Shown: piece after piece, positions 8,270 through 61,102 of the stretch
Layout: every line of letters starts with the position of its first letter
Position numbering within the stretch: position 1 is the stretch's first letter
Origin: Patescibacteria group bacterium
GTDB taxonomy: Bacteria > Patescibacteriota > CPR2 > UBA1875 > CAIMLA01
Assembly: GCA_041738615.1 (NCBI GenBank)
Contig: JBGSPL010000003.1
Coordinates: 24,708-88,707 of the forward strand
Direction of reading: 5' to 3'
DNA: 64,000 nucleotides
Program-made: the position numbers and the translations under genes
The notes under the pieces: generated by a model
What the model was told of the DNA's origin: nothing
The model's database searches: none
Seen by the model: the letters and a program-made list of their open reading frames with translations, nothing else

Positions 8270-9500
8270 GAATTGTCCTTATTTTTGGTATTACGTGTAT
8301 GGTTTTATCTTTCTTTACATACGGCAATTCACACTTGGCCCGCGGCATCAGCCCGGCTGCCATTGCGCCAGCTGCCCCAGAGAGGAGACCCACAATTATC
8401 AGTGTCTTGTCGTTTAAAAAATAGCTCAAAGCTATCAAGATAGCATAAAAGATAATCTTTGCAGCGTCTATTGCAGATTCCATGGCAAAGATGTATTCCT
8501 GACGACTGTTCTCATCGGCGTGAAGATAGTACTCCGAAGTGTATGGCGCTTGCCGAAGCGAACTTACCAGACTACGCGCCATGTTCAACGAGATGATCTG
8601 CACAAAAGTGTCGACAAAAGTAACCAGTACGAAGATAAATCCATCTAGTAAACTCCCCGTGGTGATGAACCGATGGCGGTTAGCATTATTTACTCTCTTC
8701 CCGACGAGGTATGTGACGATGATGGTCATTACAAGCGCCGCGGAGGTGATAAACCCTACAGACTGGTAGCTTTTGACGCTAGCATAGACGAAGAGCGGCC
8801 AAAAGACGAGGGAAACTGAAGCCTCTATTCCCGCCCCTCCATAGGAAATAAGGTCGCGAGATATATTACCTAGTTTGATTTTAGAAAGGTCTATAGGAGC
8901 TCCAGTGTGTAGCTCAGACTTTTTGAGCAGTGGAGTAAACACCAAAGCAAGCATTGCGATAACAATTAGGTAAAGAACACCGAACCCAAACCTGCTAGCT
9001 ATCAATCCTCCAGCCAGTGGTGCTACAGCACCGAGTACGGCTAGGATAATATACATTTTACTGACGTCCCTGGTAGCGTCTTTCTTCTTGGTGCTCCTCG
9101 AAAAGTCGTAGTGGTACCCTTGCCAGTATAACGCGAGCGCAATACCGCCACAGAGGCCGATAAACCACAGCGGCCAGTGATACGCGGGCAATGTAGAAAG
9201 CATCCAGAAGTGAGCGATCAGTGGTGGCATGGAAAGCGCTATCGCGTGCTTGGGGCCTACCTTGGAGATATACGAGGCAGAGACAAACTCGAAACTAAGC
9301 TCAGTCACGAACATCACGAGGTGCAAAACGAGAACATCACGCAGACTATATCCTAGCGAAAGCAAATATATAGGCACAAAAATGCTAATCATAGAGCAGA
9401 CGAAGGAACGCATACTCATGACTAAAAATATTTCGTTTATCTCGGTGTGTTTGATACGAAACATCTGATGTTGAACTAGTTGATGATCGCTAATAGACAA
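8256..9500 (-). CDS. MFS-type transporter (multi-TM)
   Basis: About 12 predicted TM helices, 414 aa, MFS-like loop spacing. Confidence 0.5.
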   Translation of the reverse strand: MSISDHQLVQHQMFRIKHTEINEIFLVMSMRSFVCSMISIFVPIYLLSLGYSLRDVLVLHLVMFVTELSFEFVSASYISKVGPKHAIALSMPPLIAHFWMLSTLPAYHWPLWFIGLCGGIALALYWQGYHYDFSRSTKKKDATRDVSKMYIILAVLGAVAPLAGGLIASRFGFGVLYLIVIAMLALVFTPLLKKSELHTGAPIDLSKIKLGNISRDLISYGGAGIEASVSLVFWPLFVYASVKSYQSVGFITSAALVMTIIVTYLVGKRVNNANRHRFITTGSLLDGFIFVLVTFVDTFVQIISLNMARSLVSSLRQAPYTSEYYLHADENSRQEYIFAMESAIDAAKIIFYAILIALSYFLNDKTLIIVGLLSGAAGAMAAGLMPRAKCELPYVKKDKTIHVIPKIRTIHETS

Positions 9501-9613: not shown

Positions 9614-10456
9614 TTATCTCATTAGTAATGTCGCTACGACGCATCCGAGTATTATGAAATCCGCCATGGCTTTTCTAAAAGTAAAGTGCTCTTTTAGATA
9701 AACCTTTGAGAAAGTAAGGGTCAAAAGAGGTGAAAGAAGCAAAATAAGCGTTGATTGAACAATTCCCAAGTAGATTATAGCGTAAAACCTAGCAATATAC
9801 TCTATATAAGTAATCAGTCCTGTTGCTAGAATATTCCGTTTTTCAAAACTAGGTAACTTACTGATTTTTGGGCGAAACACTATCCAAAATATCACAGTTA
9901 ATAATCCAGTTCGAAACAAATAGAATCCCACTGGAGACATTACCTCTAGTAGAACCTTCGCTAGCTGAGCCTCCAGCGACAACAAGAAAATAAATCCGAC
10001 TAAAGCTAATGTTGTCTTCTTGAAACCAATCTTAAAATGTTTCCTTTTCAACCTAGAAAGAATCAGTGCAAAGGCTGCAATGAGTGTAAGAACTAAAGGC
10101 CAAAGACTTCTTTCTGATGGAAATAATAGGGCGGCCATTATCACAGTAACTGGCCGGTCGAGTAATACAAATGGTTCTACATCGCAAAGTTCTTCTTTTT
10201 TAAGGCTATAAAAGAAGAACACGTTATAAAAATATGCGACAAATGTCTCTAAGATGAAAAGTAGCAAATACTTTGTAGTAAAAAACTCAATATCAACCCT
10301 GCCTAAAAAAGGGAAAACGAACAGCCCAATTATAAATAATATTGCCATAGAGAAAGGCAGGAACTGTTTATAGGTAATATTTTTTGTTTTCAAAATTACT
10401 TTATCTAGTATGCTCTCAGCTGAGTTTGCAAACATATTGATAATTGCAAAAATCAT
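9614..10456 (-). CDS. Integral membrane protein of unknown function
   Basis: 280 aa, about 8 hydrophobic helices. No motif recognised. Confidence 0.4.
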   Translation of the reverse strand: MIFAIINMFANSAESILDKVILKTKNITYKQFLPFSMAILFIIGLFVFPFLGRVDIEFFTTKYLLLFILETFVAYFYNVFFFYSLKKEELCDVEPFVLLDRPVTVIMAALLFPSERSLWPLVLTLIAAFALILSRLKRKHFKIGFKKTTLALVGFIFLLSLEAQLAKVLLEVMSPVGFYLFRTGLLTVIFWIVFRPKISKLPSFEKRNILATGLITYIEYIARFYAIIYLGIVQSTLILLLSPLLTLTFSKVYLKEHFTFRKAMADFIILGCVVATLLMR

Positions 10457-39295: not shown

Positions 39296-39370
39296 GGTCC
39301 CATCGTCTAGTGGTTAGGACGCCAGGTTTTCATCCTGGTAACAGGGGTTCGACTCCCCTTGGGACTACCA
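39296..39370 (+). tRNA. tRNA-Glu (anticodon UUC), CCA encoded
   Basis: Manual cloverleaf: acceptor GGTCCCA/TGGGACT, anticodon loop TTTTCAT, T-arm GGGGTTCGACTCCCC, discriminator A. Confidence 0.85.
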
Positions 39371-39530
39371 GCAAGAAATCTCAGCCATTTGGCTGGGATT
39401 TTTGCTTTTAGCTAAGTGGTGAGAACCCCTGGGTGACCAAATGGTTGAGTTCAATTTACAGATAAACCAGGCGGTAAATACATGGATTTGTGATATAGTA
39501 TGTAGGTCCTGATATTGGTGAGAAGCTCAG

Positions 39531-39551
39531 CGACTCCCCTTGGGACTACCA
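39531..39551 (+). repeat. Exact 21-nt direct repeat of the tRNA-Glu 3' end (CGACTCCCCTTGGGACTACCA), att-like
   Basis: Identical to 39350-39370. Followed by hairpin AGAGACTGATC...GGTCGGTCTCT plus a T-run. Confidence 0.8.
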
Positions 39552-39605
39552 AAAAGAGACTGATCATTTGTGGAAATGGTCGGTCTCTTTTTTTATTATC
39601 TATTC

Positions 39606-49425: not shown

Positions 49426-49992
49426 CTAGTACTTGATGCCGTACTCGTCGAGCTTCTCGCAAACCGGGGGCGTGAGCCACCCATTCTTGCGCAGAACCTC
49501 GATACCGTCGTCGGGCAAGTCACCCGTCTCGATCCGGTTTCGGATGCACTCATCCATTGCACCCAACTCGGCGACCTCCTTGGTCGGCCGGTGGCGCGTA
49601 GCACACACACAGGCGCTCTTTGCCGCGCCGACGATGCGCACGTGCTCAGTGAGAACCCAGAGCTCGTTGATCCCAGTGGGATCACTAAGCTCGAATCCCA
49701 CCTCGGTCCCATCCTGAGGGACTATCCCCTTGGGCGTCTCGAGCGGATGATCGAGGTCGACACACACGTACTTCTTGCCCGAACGAGCCCAGAAACCTCC
49801 AGGTACCTTTACCCGGTACTCATGAAGGTCCTTGGTCAGGACCGTGGCATAGCGGTAACGACCGCGCCCGGCGGTCCCGGTAATGGTGCCGAACGTGAGC
49901 ATAGCCTCGCGGACGTCCCGGTTGAATGTAAGCCCGGTCTTGTCCTCGAAGTTCTGCCCAGTTGTTCTGGAAACCTCCACCTTGCGCTGCAT
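49426..49992 (-). CDS. Hypothetical protein (188 aa) encoded in a ~62% GC island; likely horizontally acquired
   Basis: Local GC is about 15 points above flanking DNA. Balanced amino-acid composition (K/E/D-rich). Purine-rich RBS (GAGAGGGGA) before the ATG. The competing plus-strand ORF has antisense-like L/R/G-rich composition. Confidence 0.55.
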   Translation of the reverse strand: MQRKVEVSRTTGQNFEDKTGLTFNRDVREAMLTFGTITGTAGRGRYRYATVLTKDLHEYRVKVPGGFWARSGKKYVCVDLDHPLETPKGIVPQDGTEVGFELSDPTGINELWVLTEHVRIVGAAKSACVCATRHRPTKEVAELGAMDECIRNRIETGDLPDDGIEVLRKNGWLTPPVCEKLDEYGIKY

Positions 49993-51258: not shown

Positions 51259-51447
51259 GCAAATAACTCTGACATACTAAAGATGACGGGGAAAATTATA
51301 GCATTTTAGAGACTGGTTTTCAACCGTTTCAACAATATCTTTCGGCCCCGACAAAAAACGAAGATTTTTGTCGGAAAACGAGGAGTTGCGAAAAGGTGAA
51401 TCGATTAGCTTTAGATAACTCGTGGAGTCTGACAGCAAACTCCGAAG

Positions 51448-51523
51448 TGGTGCGCCCGGTTGGATTCGAACCAACGACCAATAGCTTAGAAGGCTACTGC
51501 TCTATCCCCTGAGCTACGGGCGC
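51448..51523 (-). tRNA. tRNA-Arg (anticodon UCU)
   Basis: Reverse complement gives GCGCCCGTAGCTCAGGGGATAGAGCAGTAGCCTTCTAAGCTATTGGTCGTTGGTTCGAATCCAACCGGGCGCACCA. Loop CTTCTAA. Confidence 0.85.
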
Positions 51524-57035: not shown

Positions 57036-57175
57036 CGCAAATTACAGTACCTTAAGAATTGGGACTGCCTATACGCTTATTTTTACGAGTGCAAGCTGTA
57101 TTTGATCGTGAATGAATCACTGACAGCTGCCACTCGTAAATGCGAGCTGGCATACACCAATCAGCCAAGGAGGCG

Positions 57176-57901
57176 ATGATTGTGACGAGCACATTGCTTT
57201 GCCTGACCGAGGAGCAGCAGAGGTCTATTCAGGCCCTTGCATCAAATCTCCGGGCAGGATGGTTCGGCGACCTCATGACACACATGCAGCTCACCCTTCT
57301 CGACGGCTACGTTAGCATCGGGACAGACCAGCTCAATCGCGACAAGATCACCCTCAAGTACACCGAGGGGGTATCCTCGCTCGAGATCGTCTCGGAGCCC
57401 AAACGATGGGAACTCCGGGCTCATCACGACGGCGCCGACGCGATGGTGATCCTTGAGCCCGTTGTGACTTCAACGTTCGAGACGGAACCTGTCCTGGAGT
57501 GGACGTTGAAGGCAGTACAACTGCTTACCCCGGCCGCATCCAAGAGCCAGGAGTTCCTGATTCTGGAAGTACTCTTTGCCGCGCTTCGGCGCAATGGCAA
57601 GAAGGCCTTCACGACCCAGGGCAGCGGCAATGTCTTCTCCTTCGACGGTGATCACACTGTTTCATACGTGGGCAAGAAGGACGGCTTCGGCCACCAGCAC
57701 ATCTGGGTCTACGTCGAACATGCCGACCACTTCGAGCTCATCGGGAACGTCTACGGAGACGAGATCCGCACCACGAAGGTCGAGGTGGACGGCATCTACT
57801 TCCACGACAGTGAACAGCGGCGCCACCGCAGCGACCTGATCAACACGAAGGAGATGCACCCAGCCGAAGAAGCGCTCCGCCACATCTGCCGGCGCTTCTA
57901 G
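57176..57901 (+). CDS. Hypothetical protein (~241 aa) encoded in a ~59% GC island adjacent to tRNA-Pro; likely horizontally acquired
   Basis: Likely start ATG at 57176 with SD AAGGAGG at 57167-57173 (the ORF track start at 57140 lacks an SD). GC content is far above flanking DNA. No recognisable domain. Confidence 0.55.
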   Translation: MIVTSTLLCLTEEQQRSIQALASNLRAGWFGDLMTHMQLTLLDGYVSIGTDQLNRDKITLKYTEGVSSLEIVSEPKRWELRAHHDGADAMVILEPVVTSTFETEPVLEWTLKAVQLLTPAASKSQEFLILEVLFAALRRNGKKAFTTQGSGNVFSFDGDHTVSYVGKKDGFGHQHIWVYVEHADHFELIGNVYGDEIRTTKVEVDGIYFHDSEQRRHRSDLINTKEMHPAEEALRHICRRF

Positions 57902-58024: not shown

Positions 58025-58101
58025 TGGTCGGGGTGAAAGGACTCGAACCTTCGACCTCGCGGTCCCAAACCGCGCGCACTAGCCAACTGTGCTACACCCC
58101 G
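58025..58101 (-). tRNA. tRNA-Pro (anticodon UGG)
   Basis: Reverse complement gives CGGGGTGTAGCACAGTTGGCTAGTGCGCGCGGTTTGGGACCGCGAGGTCGAAGGTTCGAGTCCTTTCACCCCGACCA. Loop TTTGGGA. Confidence 0.85.
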
Positions 58102-58159
58102 TCGTATGAAATTAACCTCGATATTATAGTCTTTTTTTGTGCTTATTTCAAGGGAAACA

Positions 58160-59656
58160 CTAATTCCGTCTCAAGACTGCAAAGGTCTCAAAGCTTTTTT
58201 CATCGTGATAGTGTGTATCAAAATACTCCACCATTGGCTTGTTCTTGTAGTAGAGCGACTCCCTATCTTTGTAGACTACTACATATTTCGCCCTCGACTG
58301 CTCCATATCGGCAATAAACTTACCATCTAGGTTAAAGCCATAACCGTCACGATAGTCGAGAAGCAGAACACTCGCTGAGATAAAGCGTGAACCACTGTCT
58401 CTGTGTGACAGCTGATAGAACGTAGCACCATAGTCTGCTGCAAATACTTTGTCTGTCGACGCTGAATGGTCATCTACATATTTGGCGATTTGCAGATATT
58501 CCCTTGCCTCCGCATTGGTTCTGCCTACGAAACCTCTGTAAGTCTCGAGGGTCGAATAACTCAGGTTCACCGCAGCCCCAAAAACAAAGAGCAAGATAAA
58601 GAGTAGACCATAGGGTTTCAGCCAACGAGTTGCGCTGATCAGCAAGTATGCGGCCGCGATAACATAGGCCGGCATTAGAATCTGGAAGTAGTAGAGATAT
58701 GGAACTCCTACAGCAAAGAAAGCGACTGACCCAAATACGAAAGTTAGAGCAAGGTAAATGTAATCATGATTTCCCCGTTTTTTCCATGCCTTTGAGATGA
58801 AGAGCAGTGGTACAACTATGATTAGCGGCGCCGCAAAAGCCACTAGGATGTAGAAAATACTCAGGTTGCTCAGGTCTCCCTTCCAGGCGCTTGTCGAATA
58901 CTTCGCACTGAAGGTAAATGAGGCAAAAATAAACTCATTCAAAGTTCCCTTGGCAGTGAAATATGCAACCCAGGCACCAGCTGCGACGATGAGCGGTAGT
59001 CCAAAGACAAGCGCGTAACCAACAAACTTTTGAAGTTCACGCAAATAATCGACGAGCAACATGATTCCAACAGGGGTGGCAAGGAGCAAGAAATTGCCCT
59101 TCATGAAGAAGAGAACCGCAAAACAACACCCTGAGAGAGCCAGCTTCCACCACTTACGGTCCTCGCGAAAAGAAAAATAGCTGAGTAACATACCCAGATA
59201 AAACACGAGCCCAAAGTTCTCGTTGTTATTTCCACTACTCGTGAACTGAGACAGGTTTCGCCAGAACACGTATATCAGAAGTGAAAGCTTAGCAAATATC
59301 TCGGATTTTTGCGGCATCAGCTTTGGTGCTAATTTCCTTGCCAACAACCAAAAGAGATAGATATCGAAAAGCGCAAAAGCTGTGAGTAGCACTCGATGGA
59401 CTGCAATGTTACCGCCCAGAAATGACATTAGCCCGTTCAGAAGGAAAATCACCGGTGGTTTATGATCCCATGCCGTTACATAGAGAGACCCGCCATGGAG
59501 CCAGTTCTTGCCGACGTAAAAGAAGATCCAGTGGTCACTATCGAAAGGATAGAGCCAGGTTCCCATGCGACAAACTACAAAAGTAAAGACGATTAGCGAC
59601 CAGTAAGAGACCGGCTTCCGCCATTGCTTCATTGTGAATTGCTTGATGCCTTCCAT
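58160..59656 (-). CDS. GT-C fold membrane glycosyltransferase (PMT_2/ArnT-like family)
   Basis: 498 aa, about 11 TM helices. First extracytoplasmic loop WDHKPPVIF resembles the DEKPP-type motif of ArnT/PMT-family glycosyltransferases. Confidence 0.55.
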   Translation of the reverse strand: MEGIKQFTMKQWRKPVSYWSLIVFTFVVCRMGTWLYPFDSDHWIFFYVGKNWLHGGSLYVTAWDHKPPVIFLLNGLMSFLGGNIAVHRVLLTAFALFDIYLFWLLARKLAPKLMPQKSEIFAKLSLLIYVFWRNLSQFTSSGNNNENFGLVFYLGMLLSYFSFREDRKWWKLALSGCCFAVLFFMKGNFLLLATPVGIMLLVDYLRELQKFVGYALVFGLPLIVAAGAWVAYFTAKGTLNEFIFASFTFSAKYSTSAWKGDLSNLSIFYILVAFAAPLIIVVPLLFISKAWKKRGNHDYIYLALTFVFGSVAFFAVGVPYLYYFQILMPAYVIAAAYLLISATRWLKPYGLLFILLFVFGAAVNLSYSTLETYRGFVGRTNAEAREYLQIAKYVDDHSASTDKVFAADYGATFYQLSHRDSGSRFISASVLLLDYRDGYGFNLDGKFIADMEQSRAKYVVVYKDRESLYYKNKPMVEYFDTHYHDEKSFETFAVLRRN

Positions 59657-59761
59657 TACCCTGCCTTCCGTCTCATCTATGCTAGCTGGGCCAAAAATAT
59701 AATCTGCTCTGTGCCCGTCAATATTATTATAACAAAAAGAATGACTGCAAGCTGGTTTATA

Positions 59762-59790
59762 TTGAAAGAAAGGTCATTTTCTGCTAGAAT
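59762..59790 (+). promoter_or_regulatory. Sigma70-like promoter TTGAAA-N17-TAGAAT upstream of the tRNA-Arg/Gly/His cluster
   Basis: -35 at 59762-59767, -10 at 59785-59790, 19 nt upstream of tRNA-Arg. Confidence 0.5.
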
Positions 59791-59809
59791 AACTAGGCAT
59801 TTTGGTCGC

Positions 59810-59887
59810 GCGCCCGTAGCTCAGTTGGATTAGAGCGTGTGGTTTCGGCCCACAAGGCCGGGGGTTCGAGCCCCTCCGGGCGCACCA
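59810..59887 (+). tRNA. tRNA-Arg (anticodon UCG)
   Basis: Acceptor GCGCCCG/CGGGCGC, anticodon stem TGTGG/CCACA, loop TTTCGGC, T-loop TTCGAGC, CCA encoded. Confidence 0.8.
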
Positions 59888-59900
59888 ATTAGCATAATGA

Positions 59901-59976
59901 GCGGGTATCGTATAATGGTTTATTATGCGACCCTTCCAAGGTCGAGATAAGGGTTCGATTCCCTTTACCCGCTCCA
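59901..59976 (+). tRNA. tRNA-Gly (anticodon UCC)
   Basis: Acceptor GCGGGTA/TACCCGC, anticodon stem CGACC/GGTCG, loop CTTCCAA, T-loop GGGTTCGATTCCC, discriminator T, CCA. Confidence 0.8.
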
Positions 59977-60179
59977 CGTCAGAATAAACTGACAGCATTC
60001 GTAAATTAGTAAGTCTAACTTACTTCTGCTTCTCGTTATTCTTCCTTTCCGAACAAAATCACAATTTTGTTCGGTGGCTCGACAAAAACCGTAGGATTTT
60101 GTCGAAAGAGGAGGAATCGCGAAAGGACGAAGACGTTGCCTCTACGTAACGTCATAATCCGCTAGCGTTTTCCGACGTG

Positions 60180-60256
60180 GTGACTGTAGCTCAGCTGGTA
60201 GAGCTCCGGTTTGTGGTACCGGCGGTCGCGGGTTCGAGCCCCGTCAGTCACCCCAT
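60180..60256 (+). tRNA. tRNA-His (anticodon GUG) with encoded G-1
   Basis: G-1 + GTGACTG acceptor, loop TTGTGGT, discriminator C, CCA. Confidence 0.85.
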
Positions 60257-60411
60257 ATAAAAATATCTCACCCCTGGGGTGAGTTGTTTTTATATTAGCG
60301 ACCGATGTGTTAAGAATCCAAAGAAGCCATGAAGTTAAGGCCTCGATTACGTTAAATACTCCAACCCGACTTGTATGTCCTAACGCGAACTAATTAGATG
60401 GCTGTAACAGC

Positions 60412-60435
60412 TTCGAGCCCCGTCAGTCACCCCAT
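60412..60435 (+). repeat. Exact 24-nt direct repeat of the tRNA-His 3' end (TTCGAGCCCCGTCAGTCACCCCAT), att-like
   Basis: Identical to 60233-60256 plus one further base. Lies 155 nt downstream of tRNA-His. Confidence 0.8.
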
Positions 60436-60447
60436 TAATTATTAAAA

Positions 60448-60470
60448 AAAGAGGCCCCGGAGGCCTCTTT
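60448..60470. terminator. Bidirectional terminator AAAGAGGCC-ccgg-AGGCCTCTTT
   Basis: 9-bp perfect stem flanked by an A-run and a T-run. Overlaps the stop of the 60470..61057 gene. Confidence 0.75.
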
Positions 60471-61057
60471 CAGTTCTTTGTGGCAACAAAGTCATTTATA
60501 CTTTTAAGAGTATTTATTGCCCTCTGAATTCCCTTTGGATCAATTGTTTTAATCAGCTCGTAAACGTCATCAGACAAAAAGAACTTAATACGCTTCTTTT
60601 GAAGTTCTGGGGAATCATTCTCATTGTAGAGATCTATTTGCCCTGCTGATTGATCAAGCTCATAAACATATTTGAGCATTTCGTCAATTGCTACCGAGTT
60701 CGCTGAAATGACTCGAAGCAGTTCTATGCTTGATGAATCCATATTGCCAGCTATTTGATTCAGGGTCACTACTATCAGATTCAACCACTCAAAAGCGAGT
60801 TTGCGTTTACTATCATCTCGCAGATACTCTAGTAACCCCTCTTTAGTAAACAATTCTTTTGCCGCTTGGAGCTTCTCTATAAGAATTGCTTCGTCACTAG
60901 CAGATGCCTCAACAGAAGCCTGCAGCTCTATCTTCTCGGCTTCAGTAAACTTCGGCTCCATAGAGTTTGTTTCTGATTGGCCTAGTCGGTGACTGTACGA
61001 ATAATCTATATTGAAAGGAGAAAATTCATCGTTTTCTTTCATAACACGAGTATACAT
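60470..61057 (-). CDS. Hypothetical acidic protein (195 aa), AT-rich gene next to tRNA-His att-like repeat
   Basis: About 37% GC against a ~46% background. No motif recognised. Flanked by strong terminators on both sides. Confidence 0.45.
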   Translation of the reverse strand: MYTRVMKENDEFSPFNIDYSYSHRLGQSETNSMEPKFTEAEKIELQASVEASASDEAILIEKLQAAKELFTKEGLLEYLRDDSKRKLAFEWLNLIVVTLNQIAGNMDSSSIELLRVISANSVAIDEMLKYVYELDQSAGQIDLYNENDSPELQKKRIKFFLSDDVYELIKTIDPKGIQRAINTLKSINDFVATKN

Positions 61058-61072
61058 AACTTTGTAATTAAA

Positions 61073-61096
61073 AAGAACCCCGGAAGGGGTTCTTTA
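61073..61096 (-). terminator. Terminator AAAAAGAACCCC-ggaa-GGGGTTCTTTAAA downstream of hup
   Basis: 8-bp stem, loop GGAA, flanking A/T tracts. Confidence 0.75.
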
Positions 61097-61102
61097 AAGC
61101 TT

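Follow-up and report, generated by a model that had tools for sequence, protein, structure and literature searches.

A short gene-free module between two copies of the tRNA-His tail in a Patescibacteria genome, and comparable modules behind other tRNA genes

Why should the 3' tail of a transfer RNA (tRNA) gene be repeated, letter for letter, a short distance behind the intact gene, with no gene between the two copies? The question is raised by the tRNA-His gene in a 64,000-nt stretch from a Patescibacteria group bacterium (GenBank assembly GCA_041738615.1, contig JBGSPL010000003.1, positions 24,708 to 88,707 of the forward strand; hereafter the window), a lineage that appears from a scan with RNase Y to be a Saccharibacteria-like member of the Candidate Phyla Radiation (CPR). 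A preliminary description of this DNA had proposed a degraded element integrated at tRNA-His or a laterally acquired gene cassette. The reading favoured here, with middling confidence, is that the repeat bounds a cargo-less, non-autonomous and gene-free site-specific insertion of about 180 bp behind tRNA-His, flanked by the attachment sites attL and attR. The His locus alone is a modest finding; interest lies in the wider module family, as such modules recur in Saccharibacteria-like and other CPR bacteria. The locus consists of the following features, in window coordinates.

60180-60255, + strand: tRNA-His(GTG), by ARAGORN and Rfam; starts at 60179 including the encoded G-1.
60233-60256, + strand: repeat copy 1, attL-like core, made up of the T-loop, the 3' strand of the T-stem, the 3' strand of the acceptor stem, C73, CCA and one more base.
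60257-60293, + strand: terminator T1, an A-rich run, the stem-loop CTCACCCC-TGG-GGTGAG (60267-60283) and a T-run.
60294-60411, + strand: non-coding interior of the module, with no open reading frame (ORF), no Rfam match and no relative among the sequences searched.
60298-60309, + strand: candidate 5' arm GCGACCGATGTG, pairing by eye at 9/12 positions with copy 2 (tRNA positions 61-72), in the acceptor/T-stem register.
60400-60411, + strand: small palindrome GCTGT-A-ACAGC, directly 5' of copy 2 and analogous to the small pre-core hairpin of the S-family modules described below.
60412-60435, + strand: repeat copy 2, attR-like core, without the 5' strand of the T-stem upstream.
60443-60472, strand unassigned: terminator T2, AAAGAGGCC-CCGGA-GGCCTCTTT, with its hairpin at 60448-60470.

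The tRNA-His gene closes an Arg-Gly-His tRNA cluster and is identical to tRNA-His of a relative (L002); its G-1 (60179) and CCA (60253-60255) can be read from the sequence. The 24-mer TTCGAGCCCCGTCAGTCACCCCAT has two exact same-strand occurrences in the window, 60233-60256 and 60412-60435, at a spacing of 179 nt, and 100 dinucleotide shuffles gave no match with three mismatches tolerated. The exact 24-nt copy of the tRNA-His 3' end reported previously is thus real and beyond chance in shuffles; the first copy starts at 60233 as given there but ends at 60256, not 60257. The hairpin with its T-run behind tRNA-His and the second terminator behind copy 2 were likewise found as described. Copy 2 begins abruptly at T54 of the T-loop and stops one base beyond the CCA, and the cores of tRNA-targeted att sites likewise run from the T-loop to past the CCA. 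Directly upstream of copy 2 the match to the tRNA falls to 7/12 nt and then to chance level (53 nt upstream compared, partly by eye). Copy 2 is ruled out as a decayed second tRNA or tRNA pseudogene, given that the tRNA body is not duplicated, and a tandem tRNA duplication is ruled out by the unrelated sequences 3' of the two copies. T1 is of a CTCAC...GGTGRG type that is recurrent behind module-carrying tRNAs, and the T1 and T2 hairpins are separated by 128 nt without an ORF.

The same layout is present at tRNA-Glu in the window, a parallel that had been drawn rightly: there a 21-nt exact copy of the tail (39350-39370 and 39531-39551) has a spacing of 181 nt, against 179 nt at tRNA-His.

39296-39370, + strand: tRNA-Glu(TTC), with core copy 1 at 39350-39370.
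39371-39551, + strand: Glu sister module, a 181-bp insertion, with T1 (39374-39403), an S-family interior (39406-39530) and the core copy (39531-39551).
39414-39419, + strand: 5' arm AAGTGG of the Glu module, inside the S-family interior.
39552-39592, + strand: native tRNA-Glu terminator, directly 3' of tRNA-Glu in L037, L039 and L041.

Relatives at this locus were obtained via homologues of the adjacent histidine kinase (L037 is from the genome of L002, and L038 from that of L003). Three of them (L037, L039 and L041) have an empty site, in which tRNA-Glu is followed straight by the terminator that trails copy 2 in the window. This native terminator, AAAAGAGAC...TTTGTGGAAA...GTCTCTTTTT, shows compensatory stem changes, and between the window and L037 the match from the core into it is unbroken over ~62 nt (by eye). 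Because three relatives have the native terminator directly behind tRNA-Glu, the alignments establish that window 39371-39551 is a clean insertion: 181 bp lie between the direct repeats, and the native flank has moved to the far side of copy 2. This geometry is that of conservative site-specific integration. A fourth relative, L038, carries a Glu module whose interior is homologous to that of the window (69 identical positions vs 45.8 +/- 8, maximum 62, in 100 shuffles) and whose 21-nt copy matches the tRNA-Glu variant of L038 itself.

Two observations on the surroundings of tRNA-Glu stand apart from the insertion. The terminator loop TTTGTGGAAA is invariant (window 39552-39592, L037 8898-8938, L039 and L041) though the histidine kinases are only 69-78% identical, a conservation unusual for a terminator loop. 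In L037, the closest relative, ~55 extra bases (8770-8822) lie between a conserved promoter-like TATAAT region and tRNA-Glu, and the window is without them.

At its 3' end the Glu interior is similar to the sequence before a tRNA-Arg 3' copy in L028. A two-block pattern from the Glu/L028 alignment was scanned over metagenomes and returned 19 loci, eight of them genuine and the rest coding sequence or RNase P RNA; the Glu-specific attR junction had no match in the metagenome scan. A profile built from seven members detects members of this family, the S-family, at E values of 6e-25 to 2.4e-37 (nhmmer). Its interior occurs at four tRNA species.

tRNA-Glu(UUC): window and L038.
tRNA-Arg(UCG): L028, L047, L058, L048 (two tandem units ~155 nt apart), L054 and L057.
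tRNA-Gln(CUG): L051.
tRNA-Glu(CUC): L056.

Every S-family member lies on the strand of its tRNA, immediately 3', and closes with 19-22 nt that duplicate the tail of this same tRNA. Blocks conserved among the members are GRGGGYGAGAAC-CCCC-GAG.TGA, ACTGA, and TGATAGCGGTGAGAAG with a small hairpin behind it; the interior consensus, GGYGAGAAC...ACTGA...TGATAGCGGTGAGAAG, consists of linear motifs. Two further contigs show this geometry around unrelated interiors, one from Berkelbacteria (L032, at tRNA-Glu) and one from Howlettbacteria (L007, at tRNA-Pro). In 13/13 modules at 10 loci the repeats are spaced 138-201 nt apart, including the non-family modules at His, L032 Glu and L007 Pro; the core copies measure 14-24 nt and are always a tRNA tail, and all insertions lie 3' of a tRNA and have a single orientation. 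Common to the modules are the tRNA, a CTCAC..GGTGRG terminator (optional), a 5' arm, an interior without coding sequence, a small hairpin and the tail copy. The modules are gene-free, strand-specific, bounded by tRNA tails, uniform in size, at times tandem, and variably present among related genomes: L002 has none at His or Glu, and L038 has the Glu module.

Tandem arrays of two or possibly three ~155-nt units, free of terminators, lie inside a Pro-Gly-Arg-...-His operon in L048 (5007-5314), L054 and L057. The upstream unit differs between L048 and L054, and the arrays therefore vary between related strains. The tRNA-Arg/tRNA-His interval as a whole also varies, with two units in L048 and an AbiE islet plus one unit in L028. 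This 2.2-kb islet (L028 13184-15404, also in L047 and L058) lies between tRNA-Arg(TCG) and a degenerate tail copy, with one family unit in tandem behind it. It is without an integrase, and the degenerate core with the same right flank AATTGAAAAT sets it apart from the family unit; its two overlapping ORFs (190 and 237 aa) are, by eye, a candidate AbiEi/AbiEii-like antitoxin/nucleotidyltransferase pair.

Tail copies were found neither behind the other four tRNAs of the window nor, for tRNA-Pro, beyond a high-GC ORF. The latter (57140-57901, + strand) encodes 253 aa at GC 0.59 and a third-position GC (GC3) of 0.77 (z = +3.9) in a 47% GC genome. It is convergent with tRNA-Pro just past its 3' end, is absent from L002, where tRNA-Pro is opposite, and has no Pfam, PADLOC or PHROGs family. 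A second high-GC ORF (49426-49992, - strand; 188 aa, GC 0.60, GC3 0.76) has no Pfam family.

The family members also have a 5' arm that changes with the tRNA. RNAalifold on seven family members predicted a single structure, in which the segment 5' of the GAGAAC block pairs with the 3' strands of the T-stem and acceptor stem of the copy. The arm/core pairs are TGAGGG-CCCTCA at Arg, AAGGGG-CCCCTT at Glu and GGAGGG-CCCTCC at Gln. In the arm alignment 88.9% of cells are paired vs 72.9% in shuffles (0/500), and the covariation score is 0.566 vs 0.258 (0/500), figures that are not probabilities, as some of the sequences are related, and that represent four tRNA identities. Both sides change in 6/9 pairs, and sliding the partner lowers the pairing to 38-56%. 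Taken module by module, the duplex energy of each spacer with its own core was not significant against shuffles. On the sequences at hand, the covarying arm could serve as the second, inverted half-site at which a recombinase binds an attP-like core, or it could form the 5' strand of an RNA minihelix.

The place of the His module among the others was judged by inspection: it has a T1-type hairpin, a candidate in-register 5' arm, a small palindrome before the copy and the 179-nt spacing. The minimum free energy fold of the His interval pairs GAC.GAUG with CGUC.GUC, and the pairing of the candidate arm is not significant taken alone (duplex energy vs shuffles). The His and Glu spacers are not alignable. 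No ORF lies between the His repeats, so there is no integrase inside the module, and neither an integrase pseudogene fragment nor an ORF remnant was found there. We infer that the His module, with its unique interior, belongs to the same kind as the other modules.

As a separate observation, the 20-mer GGCTGTAACAGCTTCGAGCC, which joins the palindrome to the start of copy 2, has a single occurrence in IMG/VR (L065 1049-1068, UViG_2643221799_000001), on a high-GC contig where it adjoins a long reverse-strand ORF, a candidate integrase only. A rough, uncomputed estimate gives ~0.1-0.2 chance matches in IMG/VR, and the similarity fades soon past the 20-mer.

If the modules are site-specific insertions, the tRNA gene would recombine conservatively with a small circle carrying the same T-loop-to-CCA segment, by means of a recombinase presumably acting in trans. 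Such an exchange would leave the tRNA intact and place the partner's T1 and ~120 nt of non-coding DNA behind it; a second copy of the tRNA tail would end the insert, joined to the sequence that was formerly the 3' neighbour of the tRNA. The predicted excision junction is GGGTTCGAGCCCCGTCAGTCACCCCAT then TAATTATTAAAAAAAGAGG, and the predicted circle junction GGCTGTAACAGC, core, ATAAAAATATCTCACC. Likewise, the empty site would read tRNA-His ...GTCAGTCACCCCAT joined to TAATTATTAAAAAAAGAGGCC, and a circle or tandem would read ...GATGGCTGTAACAGC, core, ATAAAAATATCTCACCCC. Of the degraded tRNA-His-integrated element proposed previously, the att-like repeat is retained, but 'degraded' is probably wrong in view of the uniform 138-201 nt spacing and the common architecture. 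Uniform size and architecture make random decay of larger islands an unlikely source.

The tRNA-His to hup interval was compared in relatives ranked by RNase Y / YmdB identity: L002 (99/95%), L003 (92/87%), L004 (88/75%), L005 (84/70%), L036 (82/60%), L028 (75/63%) and L007 (64/52%); the Logan contig L001 does not differ from the window. Two further features of the window enter this comparison.

60470-61057, - strand: acidic orphan gene of 195 aa, a neighbour of the module and not part of it.
61070-61097, - strand: hup terminator hairpin GAACCCC-GGAA-GGGGTTC, homologous to the hairpin directly 3' of tRNA-His in L002 and L003.

An interval identical in all relatives, which the preliminary description had named as contrary evidence, was not found, as L002, L003 and L036 differ. 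In L002 and L003, with tRNA order Gly-Arg-His, the hup terminator follows tRNA-His directly, and neither the copy nor the 195-aa gene is present. In L036 the order is tRNA-His, a T1-homologous hairpin, the 3' end of a 189-aa orphan orthologue, and hup. The L036 hairpin consists of CCCCATATAAAAATA, then ACTCAC...GGTGGG and a T-run, and its interval has no spacer, copy or second terminator. The tRNA neighbourhood is itself rearranged: after the same promoter region, window 58025-59976 has Arg-Gly where L002 12822-15346 has Gly-Arg, tRNA-Pro runs the opposite way, and the window is missing a kinase-like gene beside a glycosyltransferase. tRNA-Glu is also inverted between window/L041 and L037/L038.

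Upstream of tRNA-His, a 203-nt hairpin-rich spacer from tRNA-Gly (window 59977-60179) is kept in L004 (77% over 155 nt) and L036 (63%) and is missing from L002 and L003. In L004 there are similar spacers in front of tRNA-Gly and tRNA-Arg, and another lies between tRNA-Arg(TCT) and tRNA-Lys (window 51332-51449). Such spacers have in common a CGTCAG hairpin straight after the CCA, CCGTAGGATTT and AGGAGGAATCGCG. The spacer upstream of tRNA-His may serve as a conserved leader of the tRNA or as an element for its processing.

Several results weigh against integration by a recombinase. The predicted His empty site, with T2 directly 3' of tRNA-His, was seen in no genome compared: L002 and L003 are without the whole interval, and L036 has a T1-like hairpin, not T2. 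The simplest reading of the L036 sequence suggests that T1 could be native, with the interior, the copy and T2 inserted behind it, and this arrangement is the chief weakness of integration at the His locus. A recombinase was found neither in the 14 window ORFs scanned with Pfam (the remaining window ORFs being unscanned) nor, by a crude H-x-x-R...Y motif filter, in the flanks of other modules. IMG/VR gave 0 matches for an autonomous parent or circular form in scans for the family motif and for tandem/attP-type patterns. The His interior is undetected by the family profile at E<=10 (nhmmer; the Glu module of the window scores 6e-25) and has no relative in any sequence searched. In L038 the T1-homologous hairpin trails the copy rather than the tRNA, and extra events (accretion or successive integrations, and deletions) must therefore be assumed. 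Lastly, a move between tRNA species needs both core and arm to be changed, for which simple integrase models fall short. Two further searches bear on the same question. Searches by phmmer/jackhmmer with XerD and Hin sequences gave no match but are void, as the positive control (the L035 integrase fragment) was missed too. The tRNA-His core in IMG/VR matches only an unrelated high-GC phage attP beside an integrase.

A functional small RNA is an unlikely alternative. The module would be a ~150-nt gene or operon-internal unit, freed by tRNA processing enzymes, whose two ends pair into an acceptor/T-stem-like minihelix and leave free an NCCA tail, copied from the adjacent tRNA; this would be compatible with mobility. 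The closing helix does covary with tRNA identity and keeps the register of a tRNA minihelix. All modules lie on the tRNA strand immediately 3', the L048 units sit inside an operon without an intervening terminator, and modules elsewhere have their own. When the terminators are counted in, the intervals fold with z-scores of -2.6 (His), -4.5 (Glu) and -6.0 (L032). Nevertheless, RNAalifold found no conserved helix inside the family interior, which has linear motifs only. In Rfam 15 only tRNAs reach threshold, with nothing credible at E<=10 in three modules, and the arm carries no strand signal (G-U in 4 cells vs A-C in 2). Moreover, the clean Glu insertion and the patchy presence of modules require mobility anyway. 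If the RNA reading were true, one example of a role would be as decoys for enzymes or toxins acting on tRNA 3' ends.

Another explanation is an ordinary scar, in which a larger tRNA-His island with integrase and cargo was nearly all deleted and 155 nt happened to be left between attL and attR; this we consider improbable. It is the standard fate of tRNA-integrated elements (PMC5704250; 10.1101/2020.12.28.424599), the His interior has no family, and the 2.2-kb AbiE islet of L028 is flanked by tRNA-Arg 3' copies. Against it, the 179-nt spacing falls inside the narrow 138-201 nt range of the other modules, and the His module has the T1-type hairpin, the candidate in-register 5' arm and the small pre-core hairpin, with no pseudogene remnant.

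The orphan gene offers a further possibility, namely that it is cargo of a tRNA-His insertion or a recent cassette. The gene exists, is acidic and is AT-richer than its surroundings as described previously, at GC 0.39 rather than 0.37 (z = -2.3 vs 55 window ORFs; GC3 0.37, z = -1.9). Its 195-aa product has an isoelectric point of 4.7, with 34 D+E vs 23 K+R, and terminator T2 is common to the His module and this convergent gene. The GC deficit relative to the 0.47 mean, the absence of the gene from the two closest relatives and the lack of a family annotation (Pfam, PADLOC and PHROGs gave no credible match) would suit an import. However, the gene lies outside the repeat pair. In L036 its 189-aa orthologue, 71% identical and with conserved blocks at 70% identity in the alignment, occurs without the copy, so that gene and repeat can exist apart. 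Translation probably begins at 61042 (M6), because the orthologue begins at the residue matching M6.

The homology and structure searches that had been proposed for this protein brought few homologues and no structure. One homologue was found among 5.8 billion clustered proteins, and five proteins in all by exhaustive HMMER search; AlphaFold2 on the two-sequence alignment returned an all-helical, unusable model with a predicted local distance difference test (pLDDT) score of 39.9. The remote homologue in L063 (P0227, 32% identity, E = 9e-25) sits in the same interval, between a Pro-Arg-Gly-His tRNA cluster and hup-YmdB-RNase Y. Moreover, the GC of the gene tracks its host, with a gap of ~8 points in both the window (0.39 vs 0.47) and L036 (0.31 vs ~0.40; neighbours 0.39-0.44), and so long residence fits better than recent import. 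Other native-looking genes of the window are as AT-rich or more: the EamA-family transporter gene (9614-10456, - strand) has the lowest GC of the window, 0.35 (z = -3.4), so that the AT-richness of the orphan gene is not unique. Cargo or a recent cassette is thus very improbable, and a laterally acquired cassette tied to the repeat is contradicted by the L036 and L063 homologues. From these comparisons we conclude that the gene is an old, fast-evolving resident of the interval and not cargo of the repeat, and that L002 and L003 have lost it.

Chance or a local replication-slippage duplication, for which only the short distance between the copies speaks, has next to no probability left and is effectively refuted by the 0 shuffle matches, the unrelated flanks of the copies and the layout at 10 loci in several CPR lineages.

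CPR/Patescibacteria genomes are tiny, and to our knowledge few mobile elements are recognised in them. Full-text search found no description of such modules in the literature, for Saccharibacteria or elsewhere, and a gene-free family of ~150-nt modules would be new if mobility were shown. If mobility is confirmed, the modules would be either site-specific mobile DNA of a miniature class or an RNA of a new, tRNA-mimicking type, and would direct attention to a recombinase or a processing pathway new to these organisms. It is a tentative possibility, on the doubtful side, that they are an undescribed miniature tRNA-specific CPR element of 140-200 nt. Such a gene-free element would enclose a conserved interior in a rebuilt acceptor/T-stem minihelix of its host tRNA, spread between tRNA genes and form tandem arrays, either by a trans-acting recombinase that reads tRNA-gene structure or as functional processed tRNA-like RNAs. 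A practical lesson is that a tRNA 3'-end repeat beside an AT-rich orphan gene is no proof of horizontally acquired cargo.

Among known systems, several were considered and set aside. A retron does not fit, given that there is no reverse transcriptase and the inverted repeat and G come in the wrong order; ends of the IS200/IS605 or omega-RNA-like type create no duplication; the homing spacer of a CRISPR-associated transposon is disfavoured by a native-flank junction as exact as in conservative recombination; and hammerhead or box C/D-like motifs misfit the consensus and have no Rfam match. Closer are the tRNA-like minihelix RNAs, such as the tRNA-like domain of transfer-messenger RNA and YrlA/Y-RNA-like RNAs, which are alike in the predicted 5'/3' closing helix and free NCCA. 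The modules differ in that they have no T-loop/D-loop mimic and no Rfam match, and their 3' strand reproduces the adjacent tRNA gene exactly. [quoted passage not shown] However, the 14-24 nt duplication of the modules is always a tRNA tail, their right inverted repeat is tRNA sequence, and they occur only at tRNA 3' ends and in one orientation. They are therefore not MITEs, which are defined by terminal inverted repeats, a short duplication of fixed length and varied sites.

Decayed elements that keep attL and attR are known as cis-mobilizable elements (CIMEs; PMC5704250). The modules resemble these in being att-flanked, without integration or transfer genes, and in accretion or tandem arrangement at one site. 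CIMEs are kilobase remnants of an identifiable integrative and conjugative or integrative and mobilizable element; the modules, smaller by a factor of 10-100, show a conserved architecture, and no parent from which they might derive was found in the IMG/VR pattern scans or the collected loci. Partial-tRNA remnants and tandem integrations are also known from tRNA islands, as in tycheposons (10.1101/2020.12.28.424599). The attL/attR scars of tRNA-integrated elements, including tyrosine-integrase islands, prophages and tycheposons, are alike in the direct repeat from the T-loop to the 3' end and the intact tRNA. They are also alike in the displaced native downstream sequence, as is the case at Glu, in tandem units and in variable content. 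The modules differ from such scars in having no integrase, cargo or gene and a uniform 138-201 nt spacing, and are further set apart by an interior conserved at four tRNA species and a 5' arm complementary to the core.

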